64,000 bases of DNA, from the IMG/VR virus record IMGVR_UViG_3300028800_000079. The stretch is one strand, 5' to 3'. The notes under the pieces are model-generated. The model was given only the letters and a program-made list of their open reading frames with translations. It was not told the origin of the DNA and did no database searches. Position numbers and translations under genes: made by a program. The DNA is from an uncultured virus (IMG/VR IMGVR_UViG_3300028800_000079). Lineage: Duplodnaviria > Heunggongvirae > Uroviricota > Caudoviricetes. Of the stretch, positions 688 to 56,107 are shown piece by piece (position 1 is the stretch's first letter; each line of letters begins with the position of its first letter).

Positions 688-1011
688 GCGTCGTCTACGT
701 GTACGCGTGGGCGAACAACCCGCGCCGCGCTGCACTTCGAGGACGCCGCTGTGTGCTGGAAGCGGTCGGGGCGATGGGGACGGTCCTCATTCGGTTCTTG
801 GATACGGGCGAGCGCGTAACGACGAGCAGGCGCGCACTCCGAAGGGTGGCGGTGTGAAGCGTGTGGGCGACTACGGCGCGTTCCCCCGCGTTTGCTTCTT
901 CTGCAACGGCAAGCTGTCGTTGACGCGTTCTCCTGTGGCGTTGTGGCTGGAGACGCTGGAGCCGTCGGGCGAGAAGCGGTCGTGGCATTTCTCGTGCAGA
1001 CTGGTGGCGTG

Positions 1012-1650
1012 ATGGCGGCGCGGGTGTGGGAGGGCGCGGCTGGGTTGCGCCGGTCGCTTGTCCCGATCGAGACTCTGGAACCGTTCGTCGGCAACCCGAG
1101 AGTCGGTGATGTGGCTGTGCTCAGGGAGTCTTTGCGCCGGTTCGGGCAGGTTCGCCCCGTGCTTGTGGACGGCACACAGCTCGTCGCCGGGCATCACTTG
1201 GTCAGGGCTGCCTCGGAGGAAGGGTGGACACACGTCGCGGTGAGCCAGCACACCTTCCGGGACGAGGACGAACGCAGGGCTTACGTCCTGACAGACAACC
1301 GCAGCTCGGACCTCGGCTCATACGATGAACAGCTCCTGGTGGAACAGTTGCGAGCGCTCGCCGAGATGGACGACGGACTCGCCGGGACCGGCTACGACAG
1401 CGGCGACCTGGACGCACTCCTCGCGTCGTTGCGGGAACTGGACGTTGCGCCTCCGGTGATCGGCGCGGACGGCGGCCAGCGCGAACACCGCGACCCGTCC
1501 ATCCGCGAGGTGGTCCTGTTGTTCAACCCGGAGCAGTTTGCGCAGATCGAGGTGTGGCTCGGGATCGTGGCTCGCGAGTCCGGGACCGAGGGAACGTCGG
1601 AGACGGTGTTTCAGGGGATGCGGATCGCGGCGCAACAGTTGAATGGCTGA
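1012..1650 (+). CDS. ParB/Srx-like N-terminal domain protein
   Basis: NPR...LRESLRRFGQVRPVLVD...LVAGHH...AYVLTDNR is the ParBc pattern commonly found next to phage methyltransferases; no clear HTH. Confidence 0.8.
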   Translation: MAARVWEGAAGLRRSLVPIETLEPFVGNPRVGDVAVLRESLRRFGQVRPVLVDGTQLVAGHHLVRAASEEGWTHVAVSQHTFRDEDERRAYVLTDNRSSDLGSYDEQLLVEQLRALAEMDDGLAGTGYDSGDLDALLASLRELDVAPPVIGADGGQREHRDPSIREVVLLFNPEQFAQIEVWLGIVARESGTEGTSETVFQGMRIAAQQLNG

Positions 1651-3730
1651 CTGGTCCGCACGGCTCTACCACGCCGACTGTCTCGACGTGATGCGCAGCA
1701 TGGAAGACGCATCCGTCGATGCAGTCGTAACGGATCCGCCATACCTCATCGGCTTCATGGGCAGGGAGTTCGATGAGCAGGGTGGAGCGCACCGCGACCC
1801 GCGACGAGCGCAGGAGTGGCATGAGACGTGGGCGCGGGAGGCACTGCGGGTGTTGAAGCCTGGCGGGCACTTGCTCGCGTTCGGCGGGACACGGACGTAC
1901 CACCGGATGGCCGTTGCCATCGAGGACGCGGGGTTCGAGGTGCGCGACTCGCTCCACTACATCTACGGGAGCGGGTTCCCGAAGTCGCTGGACGTGAGCA
2001 AGGCGATAGACAAGGCGCTCGGGGCGGAACGGACAGAAGTGGTCGGCCACAAAGACTCGGGCCTCGACAAAGGCAGCGGGAACTCCGTGGACTTCGGTGA
2101 GGCGAACGGCCGCGACGAGACAGGGCTGATCCCGATTACGCTCCCTGCTACTGCTACTGCTACTGCTTGGGCTGGGTGGCACAGCGCGTTGAAGCCAGCC
2201 CACGAACCAGTTACGTACGCTACGAAACATTTGACAGCGGTTCCACTCGGGGCTACACTGAACGAGACATGCCTGCTGATGGAATCTCTCCTCTGGTGGC
2301 TCGCACCTGCGAAGTTTGTGGAGTCAGTTTCAACATCAAGCAGAGTCGAGCGCGGCGCGGACCAGTCAGGTTCTGTTCGATGGCTTGCCGCCGCGTTGTC
2401 TACGGCCAAGTCCGAACCGTGGTCAGAAATGATGGCTACGTTCAAATCACAGGAAACGGCCTTAACGTACTTGAGCATCGCCTTGTCATGGAACGCACTC
2501 TCGGACGCTCTCTTGAATCTTGGGAGCACGTCCACCACCGCAACGGGAACCGATCTGACAATCGCATTGAGAACCTTGAACTCCTCGCTATCGGCGATCA
2601 CACCCGAAGGCATCACAAGGGCCGCGTGGACTCAAAATGGATTGTGGTCGAATGCCAGGGATGCAGCCGAGAGTTTGAACGCCTCGCCTCTGTTGTGGCC
2701 CTCCATCCCAACGCCTACTGTTCCCGCGAGTGCCTGGATGCAGTATGGGCGCGTGGCTCTGAGCGGTCTTGTGACCATTGCGGAACTTCTTTCGCCGCTC
2801 CTCCAAGTCACGGACGTCGCTACTGCTCTGTCACTTGCTCAAACAGAGCCAACAATGCTAAGCGAAGAGTTGGGGAGCGTACATGCGAGTGCTGCGGCCA
2901 GTCCTTTGTTGCGGGACGACGAGCAGCCCGGTTTTGTTCCTTGCGTTGTGCTGGACTCAAACGCTAGAACCTCAGCGCATGAACCCGTGGTGCTCGCCCG
3001 GAAAACCTTTGGCGGCACGGTGGCTGAGAACGTGATGGAGCACGGCACCGGGGCGCTGAACATCGCGGCTACGCGGATAGGCACTGAGGGTGGTACCAAG
3101 AGCGGGCCGCTAAACGATAACTGGCGAGCAGCAGGGACGAATGAGCGGCCATCCGTGGTTGATATCGAGACGCTGGATGACGGGCGTTACCCGTCGAATG
3201 TGCTGCTCGCGCATCTGCCTGAGTGTGAGGGGAGCGGCCCGGCGCACACGGAGGTTCTGTGCGTCGCCGGTTGTCCAGTCAAGGAACTAAACGAGATGAG
3301 TGGTGAGTCGTCGTCGTCGTCGGGCCTTCTTACGAGCAAGCCTGGAGCGATCTACGGAGCCGGGAAGGGGATATACGGCTTCGATGATTCCGGTGGCGCA
3401 GCCCGGTTCTTTTACATCGCGAAGCCCAGGAAGCGAGAACGGATCGGAGGCCACACCCGGAACCTGCACCCGACCGTGAAGCCGATCGACCTTATGCGGT
3501 ATCTCGTCCGACTCGTCACCCCGCTGAACGGGCCGGACGGCCCTGGTGTCGTACTCGATCCTTTCGCTGGCAGCGGTTCGACGGGTTGCGCTGCGATGGT
3601 GGAGGGGTTCCGGTTTGTCGGGGTGGAGATGGAGGAGGAATCCTTCGAGACGATGGTGGCTCGCGTCTCGGACTACGCTTTCGTGAACGGGCGGGCGAAG
3701 CCGGAGCGATGCTCGGTCACGCCCGCGTGA
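1643..3730 (+). CDS. Site-specific DNA methyltransferase (N4-C/N6-A, beta class) carrying a ~259-codon in-frame insert
   Basis: DCLDVM, VTDPPY, GSGFPKS, LKPAHEP, HPTVKP and VLDPFAGSGSTG motifs; insert lies between two AHEPV copies at 2198 and 2975. Confidence 0.9.
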   Translation: MADWSARLYHADCLDVMRSMEDASVDAVVTDPPYLIGFMGREFDEQGGAHRDPRRAQEWHETWAREALRVLKPGGHLLAFGGTRTYHRMAVAIEDAGFEVRDSLHYIYGSGFPKSLDVSKAIDKALGAERTEVVGHKDSGLDKGSGNSVDFGEANGRDETGLIPITLPATATATAWAGWHSALKPAHEPVTYATKHLTAVPLGATLNETCLLMESLLWWLAPAKFVESVSTSSRVERGADQSGSVRWLAAALSTAKSEPWSEMMATFKSQETALTYLSIALSWNALSDALLNLGSTSTTATGTDLTIALRTLNSSLSAITPEGITRAAWTQNGLWSNARDAAESLNASPLLWPSIPTPTVPASAWMQYGRVALSGLVTIAELLSPLLQVTDVATALSLAQTEPTMLSEELGSVHASAAASPLLRDDEQPGFVPCVVLDSNARTSAHEPVVLARKTFGGTVAENVMEHGTGALNIAATRIGTEGGTKSGPLNDNWRAAGTNERPSVVDIETLDDGRYPSNVLLAHLPECEGSGPAHTEVLCVAGCPVKELNEMSGESSSSSGLLTSKPGAIYGAGKGIYGFDDSGGAARFFYIAKPRKRERIGGHTRNLHPTVKPIDLMRYLVRLVTPLNGPDGPGVVLDPFAGSGSTGCAAMVEGFRFVGVEMEEESFETMVARVSDYAFVNGRAKPERCSVTPA
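2231..2259 (+). promoter_or_regulatory. Sigma-A-type promoter inside the methyltransferase insert, upstream of the nested HNH
   Basis: TTGACA (2231-2236), 17-bp spacer, TACACT (2254-2259); ATG at 2269. Confidence 0.7.
2269..2967 (+). CDS. HNH homing endonuclease with Cys-rich zinc-binding repeats, nested in the -1 frame of the methyltransferase
   Basis: EHRLVME..LGR.L...EHVHHRNGNRSDNRIENLEL plus repeated CxxC...FCSxxC units. Confidence 0.85.
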   Translation: MPADGISPLVARTCEVCGVSFNIKQSRARRGPVRFCSMACRRVVYGQVRTVVRNDGYVQITGNGLNVLEHRLVMERTLGRSLESWEHVHHRNGNRSDNRIENLELLAIGDHTRRHHKGRVDSKWIVVECQGCSREFERLASVVALHPNAYCSRECLDAVWARGSERSCDHCGTSFAAPPSHGRRYCSVTCSNRANNAKRRVGERTCECCGQSFVAGRRAARFCSLRCAGLKR

Positions 3731-3791
3731 GTAACCCTCTAGTTGAGGTTTACCGTCCGATGCTGTCGTCTACACTTTCCACAGATGCGCT

Positions 3792-4139
3792 GTGGACACG
3801 AATCTGTATTCGACATCGCGTTGGCGCGACACCCGGCTGCGGGTCCTTGACCGCGACCGGCACCGCTGCCTGGTAGGCAGGCTTCTCGGCACGCCCTGCT
3901 CCGGTCTGCTCGACGCGCATCATGTGATCCCGGTTGGCGAGTGCGAGGATCCGTTCGACACTGAGAACCTCGTCTGTCTCTGTCACGGCCACCATCCGTA
4001 TATCGAGTCGTTGCGTCGCCGGGAGACGGTTCGGCGCGGCCTCGCGACGCCGGTCTGCCGTCATCAGCACAGGACGTTGGAGGCGCGGCTGCTTTGTTCG
4101 GCGCGGCAGGCGCGGCAGCGTGACCGGGTGGCTGCTTGA
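3792..4139 (+). CDS. HNH endonuclease (small, terminase-proximal type)
   Basis: RWRDTRLRVLDRDRHRC...DAHHVIP...NLVCLCHGHH. Confidence 0.8.
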   Translation: MDTNLYSTSRWRDTRLRVLDRDRHRCLVGRLLGTPCSGLLDAHHVIPVGECEDPFDTENLVCLCHGHHPYIESLRRRETVRRGLATPVCRHQHRTLEARLLCSARQARQRDRVAA

Positions 4140-54489: not shown

Positions 54490-54788
54490 ACCGAGTGATG
54501 CAGGAACCCGTCACCGGCCCCGCCGCCACCGTCTACCTCGGCGCGTGGTTCTGCGCCGCACAGCGCGGGCACGGCCTGAACGCGGCCCGTGTGGCGAGGG
54601 ACGCGCACCGCTGCCGCAACACCGCCGTCCGGGGCAGGCTGGGGTTCGCGTCGAGGGTGAATCGGCCGGTGATGACGCTGCCGTCGCTGGCTCCGCACGC
54701 GGTGCGGCAGACGCGGCAGCCGAAGCCGGTACGTCGCGGACGCGTCCTTCAGGAGCGCGGCAGACCCCGACTAGCGGGGGCGGTTTAG

Positions 54789-55346
54789 GTGTCGGTGCTT
54801 GTCGGCACCAGCCCGACCGACCTGTACGTCGCCGCGCAGGACCTCCTGACGGCCGCGTCGGATGCGTGCGACACCGTCCCGGACGCGGGCACCACGAAGG
54901 GCGGACACATCGTCCGCCAGTACGTCTCGCCGGGACTACCGCCCTGGGACGGCTGCCCACAACTCACCGTCCACGTCGGGAGCGCGGTGCTCGGAGACAC
55001 GGCCCCGTTGCAGCCGCCGCTCCAGCCCGGCGTCCGCGAAGGCGCAAACCGGGCGGTGCGGCTGGTCGCGTTCACGGTCACCGTGCTCCGCTGCGTCCCC
55101 GTGATCGGCAACGTCGGCCCGAAAACCCCGTCACCGCAAACCATCTCGGATGCAGCGCAGGTGATCGACTCCGACCTGTGGGCGATCTGGAACCATCTCG
55201 CAGCCCTGAAACGGGCCGGGCTGCTGTTCCCGCCCGACAAGACGCGCGTCATGTTCTTCGACCCTGCCGTCGCGGTGAACACGTCCGGTGGCACTGGCGG
55301 CTGGCAACTTCAATTTCGAGTCGAGATGCCGTCGTACCCCTCATGA
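54789..55346 (+). CDS. Tail terminator or neck protein (putative)
   Basis: PWDGCPQL, VLRCVP and SGG.GGW; position. Confidence 0.6.
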   Translation: MSVLVGTSPTDLYVAAQDLLTAASDACDTVPDAGTTKGGHIVRQYVSPGLPPWDGCPQLTVHVGSAVLGDTAPLQPPLQPGVREGANRAVRLVAFTVTVLRCVPVIGNVGPKTPSPQTISDAAQVIDSDLWAIWNHLAALKRAGLLFPPDKTRVMFFDPAVAVNTSGGTGGWQLQFRVEMPSYPS

Positions 55347-56107
55347 CAGAGACGACCATCAGAACCTGTGAATGTGGTAAGCCGGTTGTGGCTAGAGGAT
55401 TGTGTCACTCTCATTATCGGAAGGTGATGCGTTCCGAGCCTGATGGCGGCAGGTTGCGTAAGGCGGCGACGAATCGTTTCCTGGATTCGATCTCGCATGA
55501 AGGTGAATGCTGGATTTGGGCAGCCGCCCTAGACAATGGAGGCCGCCCGAAGATTTGGTGTGAGCGTACCTTTATCCCGGCTAAGAGATTTGCCTACGAG
55601 ACATTCATTGGTCCTCTACCGACCAAATGGGTGAAGTCAGCGTGCGGGAACGTGCTCTGCGTCAATCCCGAGCACTTGAAGGTGAGCACGCATCTCGTGG
55701 GAGACGAGGAGACGAAGCCGTGCTCCAAGTGCAGGAAGGTCAAGCCGCGTTCTGAGTTCACCGTTGATGGTGGGTATCTGCGTGGGCCATGTAAGGAGTG
55801 CGAATCGAAACGAGATCATGGCGTGGCGCAGAGGAAGGCGAAAGCTAAGAAGTATGGGCTTTCTCTGGACGATTACGAGCAAATGCTGGCAGCACAAGGA
55901 GGGGTTTGCGCCATCTGTCAGAGGCCGGAGACATTCGTTACGAGGGGGACAGTTTCGTCTCTTGGTATCGACCACGATCACGAGACGGGGGTTGTCCGTG
56001 GGCTACTCTGCCGCCTCTGCAACGCTGGAATCGGTGGTCTACAAGATTCCCCTGAACTCCTAGAGCGGGCAGCGGAATACCTTCGCGGCTACGAGGTGTC
56101 GCCGTGA
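55343..56107 (+). CDS. HNH plus endonuclease VII-like homing endonuclease
   Basis: CWIW...CVNPEHL, then YGLSLDDYEQM..Q.GVCAIC...IDHDH.TG.VRGLLC..CN. Confidence 0.85.
   Translation: MTETTIRTCECGKPVVARGLCHSHYRKVMRSEPDGGRLRKAATNRFLDSISHEGECWIWAAALDNGGRPKIWCERTFIPAKRFAYETFIGPLPTKWVKSACGNVLCVNPEHLKVSTHLVGDEETKPCSKCRKVKPRSEFTVDGGYLRGPCKECESKRDHGVAQRKAKAKKYGLSLDDYEQMLAAQGGVCAICQRPETFVTRGTVSSLGIDHDHETGVVRGLLCRLCNAGIGGLQDSPELLERAAEYLRGYEVSP

Follow-up and report, generated by a model that had tools for sequence, protein, structure and literature searches.

The 64,000-nucleotide stretch of DNA analyzed here, from an uncultured virus of the class Caudoviricetes (IMG/VR record IMGVR_UViG_3300028800_000079; the whole stretch is termed the window), contains a gene for an N6/N4 DNA methyltransferase whose reading frame (the host frame) runs unbroken through a 777-nucleotide (nt) insert, and the insert encodes an HNH endonuclease in another frame. 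The element is probably a splicing-free homing element of the ShiLan type, with an overprinted HNH gene and a methylase that is read straight through. The ShiLan domain of actinobacteriophage DNA methylases has been published (Gosselin et al. 2023, PMC9957025; Arsenault, Gosselin and Gogarten 2025, PMC11855218), and the view of the original prediction, made from the letters of the window, that the layout is a different strategy is therefore out of date as a claim of novelty. The window is a divergent, longer example of the published layout and the principle is not new; the additions to the accessible parts of the published text are carriers of low guanine-plus-cytosine content (GC) in bacterial and archaeal assemblies, methylases that have been invaded twice, flanking motif copies that decay in complementary halves, and a Shine-Dalgarno start for the HNH gene.

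In the proposed mechanism an HNH homing endonuclease gene would have entered the DNA for the β6-β7 hairpin (ALKPxxEPxxxARKP) of a β-class N6/N4 methylase, its product being expected to cleave empty alleles. The HNH would be read in the +2 frame from a start of its own and the methylase, presumably active, would be translated through, with the other frame of the HNH gene forming a 259-residue unconstrained loop that exits the fold and returns to it at the hairpin. Selection for a working methylase would remove host-frame stops, shaping the codons and dicodons of the HNH gene, and the element would be flanked by two copies, about 14 codons each, of the target motif.

Organization of the methylase gene and its insert

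The methylase open reading frame (ORF) spans 1643..3730 on the plus strand (695 amino acids) and matches PF01555 (N6_N4_Mtase, E 8.3e-28) in two stretches. It has a single stop, which is terminal, and is open across the whole insert. The catalytic motifs are intact, with DPPY at 1733-1744 and DPFAGSG (the FxGxG motif) at 3557-3577, as are the invariant columns of the alignment. The insert (2198..2974, plus strand, 777 nt) is delimited by alignment with insert-free methylases, by GC and by model confidence (predicted local distance difference test, pLDDT), and has a GC of 53-60% (methylase residues 186 to 444) compared with about 62-70% in the flanks. Alignment of nine carriers with four insert-free phage methylases (Xeno, DLane, Daenerys and prophiGD44-1), which had been proposed for placing the boundaries, gives a single insertion site between ALKPx and xEPxxxARKP of the PF01555 methylase; the edges are ambiguous within the flanking repeat, and the coordinates used here follow the register of the original prediction. 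In this register the host-frame product of the insert starts with AHEPV and ends with NARTS, the next residue being Ala. A PDB sequence search with the methylase returned DpnA, CcrM, M.RsrI and others, which cover its N- and C-terminal parts only and leave the hairpin motif unmatched. With the host-frame product of the insert as a protein query three matches are found (itself, P0122 and P0123), a number that is no measure of rarity as low-complexity words probably crowded the candidates.

The HNH gene (2269..2967, plus strand, 232 amino acids; PF13392 HNH_3, E 5.6e-11) lies in the +2, or equivalently the −1, frame of the methylase, (2269-1643) mod 3 being 2. Its frame is open from stop to stop over 2101..2967, with an ATG at 2269 and a TAG at 2965-2967 that ends 7 nt ahead of motif copy 2, and it takes up 699 of the 777 nt of the insert, the remainder being 71 nt on the 5' side and 7 nt on the 3' side. 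The protein is composed of an N-terminal zinc ribbon, the HNH_3 core and C-terminal CxxC...CSxxC repeats. Its homologues number 1025, and in an alignment the residues C14, C17, C36, C40, H70, H89, H90, N98, N102 and H111 are invariant. The stop-free methylase frame through the insert, the full HNH protein in the −1 frame, the promoter-like site ahead of it (as a consensus match) and the duplicated flanking decapeptide had each been noted in the original prediction and hold up here.

Carriers of the same layout

A tblastn search of 50,697 phage records with the HNH places its closest relatives inside annotated DNA methylase genes, those of Cylindrospermopsis phage Cr-LKS3 and of the mycobacteriophages Mantra, Totinger, Starcevich, Bipolar, Filuzino, Pollywog, MISSy, Murica, OwlsT2W and ShiLan. 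The window HNH is 42-44% identical to those of ShiLan, Bipolar, Filuzino, Pollywog, MISSy, OwlsT2W and Starcevich (E 1e-24 to 2e-25). In 9 of 9 phage carriers examined the HNH match sits at the +2 offset within the annotated methylase coding sequence, which has a terminal stop only. When viral, genome and metagenome contigs were scanned with the HNH, 199 more loci were obtained. The HNH is surrounded by both methylase halves in 22 of them, and in 21 of these 22 the halves are in one frame with no host-frame stop between them, the +1 frame having 4-53 stops. A gene split by a free-standing endonuclease is thus not seen in the window or in these 21 loci, each having a single continuous ORF. The assemblies that hold carriers are labelled Betaproteobacteria, Pseudolabrys, Deltaproteobacteria, Chloroflexota and Aquaspirillum, among others, and HNH identity among carriers falls to about 36%.

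Two methylases are invaded twice. A second +2-frame HNH_3 ORF is present in locus L157 (with L158; 3296-3757, E 1.5e-13) and in L055 (1933-2358, E 4.5e-15), in both cases at another conserved site of a host ORF that continues without interruption (807 and 859 amino acids, respectively). In L144 (2498-3004) and L160 (555-1100) an HNH of the window's type lies in the +2 frame at a different methylase site, between GFPKxL and xLKP; both have an open host frame, and a short flanking image of the local sequence is visible by eye. These two loci and the second inserts of L157 and L055 are all in the PF01555 family, as is the window.

Several side observations concern these methylases and related HNH loci. 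By eye, GRxPSN is followed by a Cys-rich loop (PEC, then LCVAGCP) in both the window methylase (about 3200-3290, residues about 520-548) and L143; this is the site of the second insert in L157, with Cys at both ends of that insert, and the loop may bind metal or act as a landing site. A "zinc clasp" closing the ends of the host-frame loop was considered for the window and rejected, the loop having a lone Cys near each end and no pairs. A true intein follows WxYG|C in the methylases of Starcevich (L003), ShiLan (L009) and the metagenomic protein P0123, the last of which holds the intein and a hidden HNH insert together, and the Mantra (L002) methylase has an in-frame LAGLIDADG-like block. The methylase intein and the Mantra block are already described in the accessible text of PMC9957025. 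Two HNH loci with no recognizable methylase flanks have no stop in the equivalent shifted frame, L062 (2501-3220) over 240 codons at 64% GC and L147 over 149 codons at 51% GC with 14 stops in the third frame, and these HNHs may be embedded in other host genes.

Selection on the host frame

Over the HNH stretch the host frame is free of stops in all 29 carriers analyzed, and the third frame has 2-26. Three more of the two-flank carriers (L054, L133 and L135, out of 32) were left out of this count as their tblastn stretch overran the HNH stop codon. In 163 HNH loci without methylase flanks the equivalent frame has a median of 4.4 stops per 100 codons. At a GC below 0.5, 11 of 11 carriers are stop-free compared with 0 of 53 free-standing homologues of at least 100 codons (Fisher 1.3e-12; 1-14 stops in the latter, median 6), statistics that are indicative only as carriers and free-standing loci are phylogenetically non-independent. 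A depletion of stop-forming dicodons relative to free-standing HNHs, proposed as a check in the original prediction, is seen in these stop counts, and the host-frame stops that it had named as telling against the idea if common in related inserts are confined, among the carrier-like loci examined, to one exceptional locus (L177, discussed below). Within-gene synonymous shuffles of the window HNH (n = 1000) have a mean of 2.23 host-frame stops and are stop-free in 4.2% of cases, which taken alone is weak evidence; summed over 18 non-redundant carriers, the log10 probability from such shuffles is -20.6, a figure that is likewise only indicative given the shared ancestry of the loci. Since codon use has itself adapted, the shuffle errs on the conservative side. 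The open host frame is selected and not a matter of chance.

Substitution patterns indicate which frame is conserved where. Within the insert, differences are most frequent at the third position of HNH codons, equivalent to host position 2 (21/9/46 over the three HNH positions for L001 and L014; 62/55/84 for the window and L001), whereas in the methylase flanks they peak at host position 3 (91/93/170 and 68/56/153). Identity in the HNH frame compared with the host frame is 0.82 versus 0.65 for L001 and L014 and 0.52 versus 0.33 for the window and L001. The codon-position patterns thus show that the HNH reading is conserved inside the insert and the methylase outside it, and the host-frame loop is constrained mainly to stay stop-free. 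In the pair L140 and L141 there are 23 nt differences in 171 insert codons compared with 277 nt differences in 327 flank codons, a contrast that is the signature of recent transfer between diverged alleles.

An open frame arising by chance in GC-rich DNA, over a methylase that is decaying or split, is an extremely improbable explanation. The window is GC-rich, long spurious ORFs are common in it, and a small fraction of the window shuffles does remain open; however, carriers at 33-45% GC are open while their third frame has 12-26 stops, change in the methylase flanks is biased to third positions, and the catalytic motifs and invariant columns are intact. As far as computation goes, this explanation is refuted.

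The flanking motif copies

The insert is flanked by two copies of a methylase motif. Copy 1 is a 16-amino-acid unit (ALKPAHEPVTYATKHL, 2186..2233, plus strand) consisting of the end of strand β6 and a diverged image of β7, modeled with low confidence, and copy 2 (ARTSAHEPVVLARKTF, 2963..3010, plus strand) supplies the core β-strand VVLAR. The decapeptides of the original prediction within them are AHEPVTYATK (2198-2227) and AHEPVVLARK (2975-3004), repeated with a period of 259 codons, and the copies are diverged repeats of the methylase KPxxEPxxxxxK motif. In 101 insert-free close homologues the pattern A-L-K-P-a-[HFYW]-E-P-[IV]-V-[VL]-A-R-K-P-L is nearly invariant, and 118 of the 119 closest homologues of the methylase N-terminal part have a single copy.

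Residue retention differs between the copies among 19 non-redundant carriers. Copy 1 keeps K2, P3 and E6 in all 19, compared with 3, 13 and 13 in copy 2, of which the first three motif positions are mostly lost. Copy 2 in turn keeps P7 in 14 (7 in copy 1), A11 in 16 (12 in copy 1) and R12 in 14 (4 in copy 1). K13 is kept in 19 and 18, respectively. The complementary retention suggests that the working motif is built from complementary halves, copy 1 apparently contributing its first half (ALKPxxE) and copy 2 its second (P-hydrophobic-ARKPL). The invariant K13 and mostly kept P14 of copy 1 are unexplained by the idea of a redundant half and count against this reading.

The window copies are identical at 6 of 9 core residues. 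Across loci, copy likeness is 4.11/9 within a locus compared with 2.57/9 between loci. The observed sum was attained by none of 20000 permutations, although shared base composition may contribute to the likeness within a locus. In 60 of 84 identical-residue pairs the two copies use different codons, which excludes recent gene conversion. A tentative account, rather doubtful at present, is that the flanking repeat is an integration footprint, each invasion of a new methylase subtype duplicating about 14 target codons and the copies then decaying in complementary halves that rebuild the β6-β7 hairpin. The repeat could originate from nicks some 40 base pairs (bp) apart with fill-in, or from a template switch during repair. 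If true, this would amount to a "bring or make your own patch" rule by which an endonuclease gene enters an invariant motif without splicing, and the rule may extend to other insertion sites, as the flanking images seen by eye in L144 and L160 would allow.

Fate of the host-frame product of the insert

The AlphaFold2 model of the 695-residue window protein has a confident methylase core, with blocks at pLDDT 70-92, and residues 184-446 below 50. The strand 449-453 (VVLAR of copy 2) lies within the fold at about 85. In the model of a second carrier (L149), in which the copy 2 Glu is lost, residues 161-354 are of low confidence and the strand 357-361 is at about 86. Both models rest on shallow alignments (14 sequences and a mean pLDDT of 50.8 for the window, 13 sequences and 54.8 for L149), and such models cannot prove the loop harmless or show function, which is a point against reading it as a tolerated passenger. 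As modeled, the host-frame product of the insert is a low-confidence loop, in which helices of low confidence are predicted throughout in both cases, and copy 2 is predicted to form a core strand.

The original prediction had described a dual-coding element with an open host frame, either tolerated as a linker or skipped by splicing or ribosome bypass. Dual coding is supported by the stop avoidance, the codon-position substitutions and the two structure models. Of the two outcomes the tolerated linker is favored, since splicing or bypass could do without an open frame, which is nonetheless maintained even in carriers of 32-45% GC, and skipping is correspondingly disfavored.

A loop co-opted as a regulatory or DNA-contacting arm or as a dimer contact, with the frame kept for loop function, is an unlikely alternative to a loop that is merely tolerated. 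The age and spread of the layout, evident in the divergence of the HNH among carriers, would be in keeping with it, as would the retention of K13 and P14 in copy 1 and the helices predicted through the loop. However, host-frame identity drops faster than HNH identity, with changes falling at host position 2, most close methylase homologues are insert-free with their single motif copy, and the insert of L140 and L141 is far more similar than the host genes, suggesting transfer over co-evolution.

Removal of the insert after translation, by an unrecognized protein splicing or cleavage in which the motif copies guide rejoining, is quite improbable. An open host frame is a requirement of inteins too, both copies keep their amino acids despite differing codons, and Asn is the last residue of the host-frame insert, directly before copy 2 (SPN|xEP), in many carriers, a feature also remarked upon in the available text of PMC11855218. 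Against protein splicing, the xxT-AAC context of the HNH stop codon accounts for this terminal Asn. Pfam searches of the host-frame product found no Hint or intein family, and at the window insert termini (Ala first, RTS last, then Ala) there is no Cys, Ser or Thr nucleophile and no His-Asn, in agreement with the lack of intein termini recorded in the original prediction. The host-frame sequence in addition evolves as an unconstrained passenger, and no confident fold is modeled for it.

Removal as RNA, by an unrecognized self-splicing intron, or bypass by the ribosome between the motif copies, is very unlikely. Homing HNH genes often reside in group I introns, and at its 5' end the insert is similar to the sequence downstream of the insertion site. 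In T4 gene 60, 50 nt are skipped, with a stop codon after the take-off codon and matching take-off and landing codons; in the window the gap is 777 nt with no host-frame stop anywhere in it. The 5' resemblance was weighed by the 2025 authors as a possible group I internal-guide signature, and their RNAweasel and MFannot runs were negative, as given in the available portion of PMC11855218. For the window, an Rfam search of 1500-4000 at E <= 10 gave no matches, although covariance models can miss ORF-bearing introns; this agrees with the earlier statement that no group I intron core is visible, and the 71 and 7 nt outside the HNH ORF are too short for a ribozyme core. Both routes could dispense with an open frame, and yet all 29 carriers are open, including those at 33-45% GC. 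Translation straight through the insert therefore remains the favored reading of the methylase gene.

Expression of the HNH gene

A promoter-like site, TTGACA-17-TACACT (2231..2259, plus strand), matches the consensus at 10 of 12 positions and is the sole such site in 1500-4000, where shuffles yield 0.5 +/- 0.7. It ends 9 nt ahead of the HNH ATG at 2269, so that the HNH mRNA could be nearly leaderless, and initiation in the window would probably take place on such an mRNA made from this internal promoter. Most relatives would instead use a Shine-Dalgarno site with an ATG or GTG. Of 19 parsable carriers, 14 have a Shine-Dalgarno-like word ahead of the start closest to the first zinc finger, and in 8 of 8 aligned ShiLan-type sequences, including Mantra, a GTG lies 3 nt behind GGAGGA.

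The published HNH start, in the accessible text of PMC11855218, is a GTG 18 bp into the insert, with a ribosome-binding site stated to be undetectable. In 6 of 7 aligned ShiLan-type phages (L003-L009, about 2423-2515) this GTG is followed by an in-frame TGA, which is CGA in ShiLan alone. The GGAGGA-preceded GTG is 78 nt downstream of the published one and, with its clear predicted ribosome-binding site, is the better candidate for the HNH start. Expression of the HNH as a frameshift fusion to the N-terminal half of the methylase was considered and rejected, as many carriers have a +2-frame stop 50-90 nt after the LKP codons, directly before the HNH start.

Observations at variance with the interpretation

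Besides the non-independence of the loci, the shallow models and the conserved K13 and P14 of copy 1, the following weigh against a homing element with a methylase read straight through. The window HNH ATG is without a clear Shine-Dalgarno site, and the support for the promoter-like site is its match to the consensus. Locus L058 (32% GC, Woesearchaeota assembly) is open through the insert and copy 2 and has, downstream of the insert, one stop and N- and C-terminal halves in different frames. The locus at 1-330 of L177, a contig of 1130 nt truncated within its HNH, contains 3 host-frame stops in the first approximately 30 codons, and an in-frame methylase C-terminal half follows; L177 is the sole carrier-like locus with host-frame stops ahead of the HNH motif, the N-terminal part of its HNH is unlike the family, and it may be a decayed or recombinant copy. 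In contigs of four rhizosphere DNA runs mapped on 1400-4000 no insert-free joint was found for the window's methylase; runs X2 and X3 contain pieces identical to the insert, and X4 contains flanks only, which does not amount to evidence of an empty allele. The nearest virus record (G001, a 13.3 kb fragment) leaves the methylase unmatched and so offers no near-isogenic empty allele for comparison. The work in PMC11855218, as far as its available text goes, is computational only.

Neighboring genes

The window sequence was traced to rhizosphere metagenomes and contains the tailed-phage genes for terminase, portal, major head and tape-measure proteins (PHROG matches). Upstream of the methylase is an ORF with a ParB-like domain (892..1650, plus strand; PHROG ParB-like partition protein, E 5.8e-30), the 3' end of which overlaps the methylase start at 1643. 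Between the methylase and the terminase region is a free-standing HNH ORF (HNH_2; 3792..4139, plus strand) with matches to PF13391 (E 3.4e-4, just under the cut-off) and to an HNH endonuclease PHROG (E 2.1e-11). It is probably of the packaging-associated kind, unrelated to the insert, and is context outside the inserted element. Elsewhere, among the structural genes, the C-terminal part of a 520-amino-acid ORF (54545-56107) matches endonuclease VII (E 7.6e-37) and HNH (E 2.9e-18) PHROGs.

Comparison with known systems

An intron, an intein or an intergenic position used to be regarded as necessary for a homing endonuclease to spare its host gene. The element class described here represents a fourth way, in which the endonuclease is overprinted on a stop-free frame and the host protein carries the other frame as a loop. 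The survey extends the layout far beyond mycobacteriophages, shows it to be under measurable codon selection and finds that it can occur twice in one methylase. Annotation passes over such overprinted HNH genes, since the ORF called at these loci is the longer one of the methylase.

The closest known system is the ShiLan domain, in the accessible parts of PMC9957025 and PMC11855218 a 202-amino-acid insert without host-frame stops that conceals an HNH with zinc fingers in the third frame. The published insert has no intron or intein, is predicted to form a loop and has a patchy, transfer-like distribution. The window shares with the ShiLan domain the PF01555 host, the site between ALKPx and xEPxxxARKP, the stop-free host frame, the third-frame HNH with flanking zinc fingers, the lack of an intron or intein signal and the loop prediction. 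In both, the first approximately 11 residues of the insert resemble the approximately 11 that follow the site, 11 being the figure in the published text. The differences are the length of the insert, 202 compared with 259 codons, the window insert being longer because its HNH carries the extra C-terminal CxxC...CSxxC repeats, the GTG start compared with an ATG behind a promoter-like site, and the source, mycobacteriophages compared with an uncultivated rhizosphere phage. Beyond these two papers, the literature search on this layout brought up, in the portions available, only a 2025 preprint on actinophage inteins and a genome announcement. A second hidden HNH at another site is described for Pacc40 gp60, a helicase-methylase, in the accessible text of PMC11855218. 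As in the window, this HNH-like ORF is out of frame and the methylase frame is open, so that the layout is independent of one site; the methylase family and the site differ from those of the window.

Inteins with homing endonucleases resemble the window element in being selfish insertions in a conserved motif that are translated in the host frame and require it to be open. The window insert differs in having no Hint domain, terminal nucleophiles or His-Asn, and its endonuclease is encoded in another frame rather than as a domain of the insert. The nrdA gene of Aeromonas phage Aeh1 is reportedly split by the free-standing homing endonuclease gene mobE, a case said to have been described by Friedrich and colleagues in 2007. 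There, as in the window, an endonuclease gene sits in a coding gene without an intron or intein and host function is retained, but the result is two ORFs with assembling products compared with one continuous ORF here. LAGLIDADG genes in fungal mitochondrial rps3 and other genes, which Sethuraman and colleagues are said to have reported in 2009, reportedly come with a duplicated piece of the host gene. These likewise have no intron of their own, and the duplicated host coding piece at the junction restores the host protein. In rps3, however, the endonuclease is fused in the host frame and the duplicate rebuilds a displaced terminus, whereas in the window the endonuclease occupies another frame and the duplicate flanks an internal loop.

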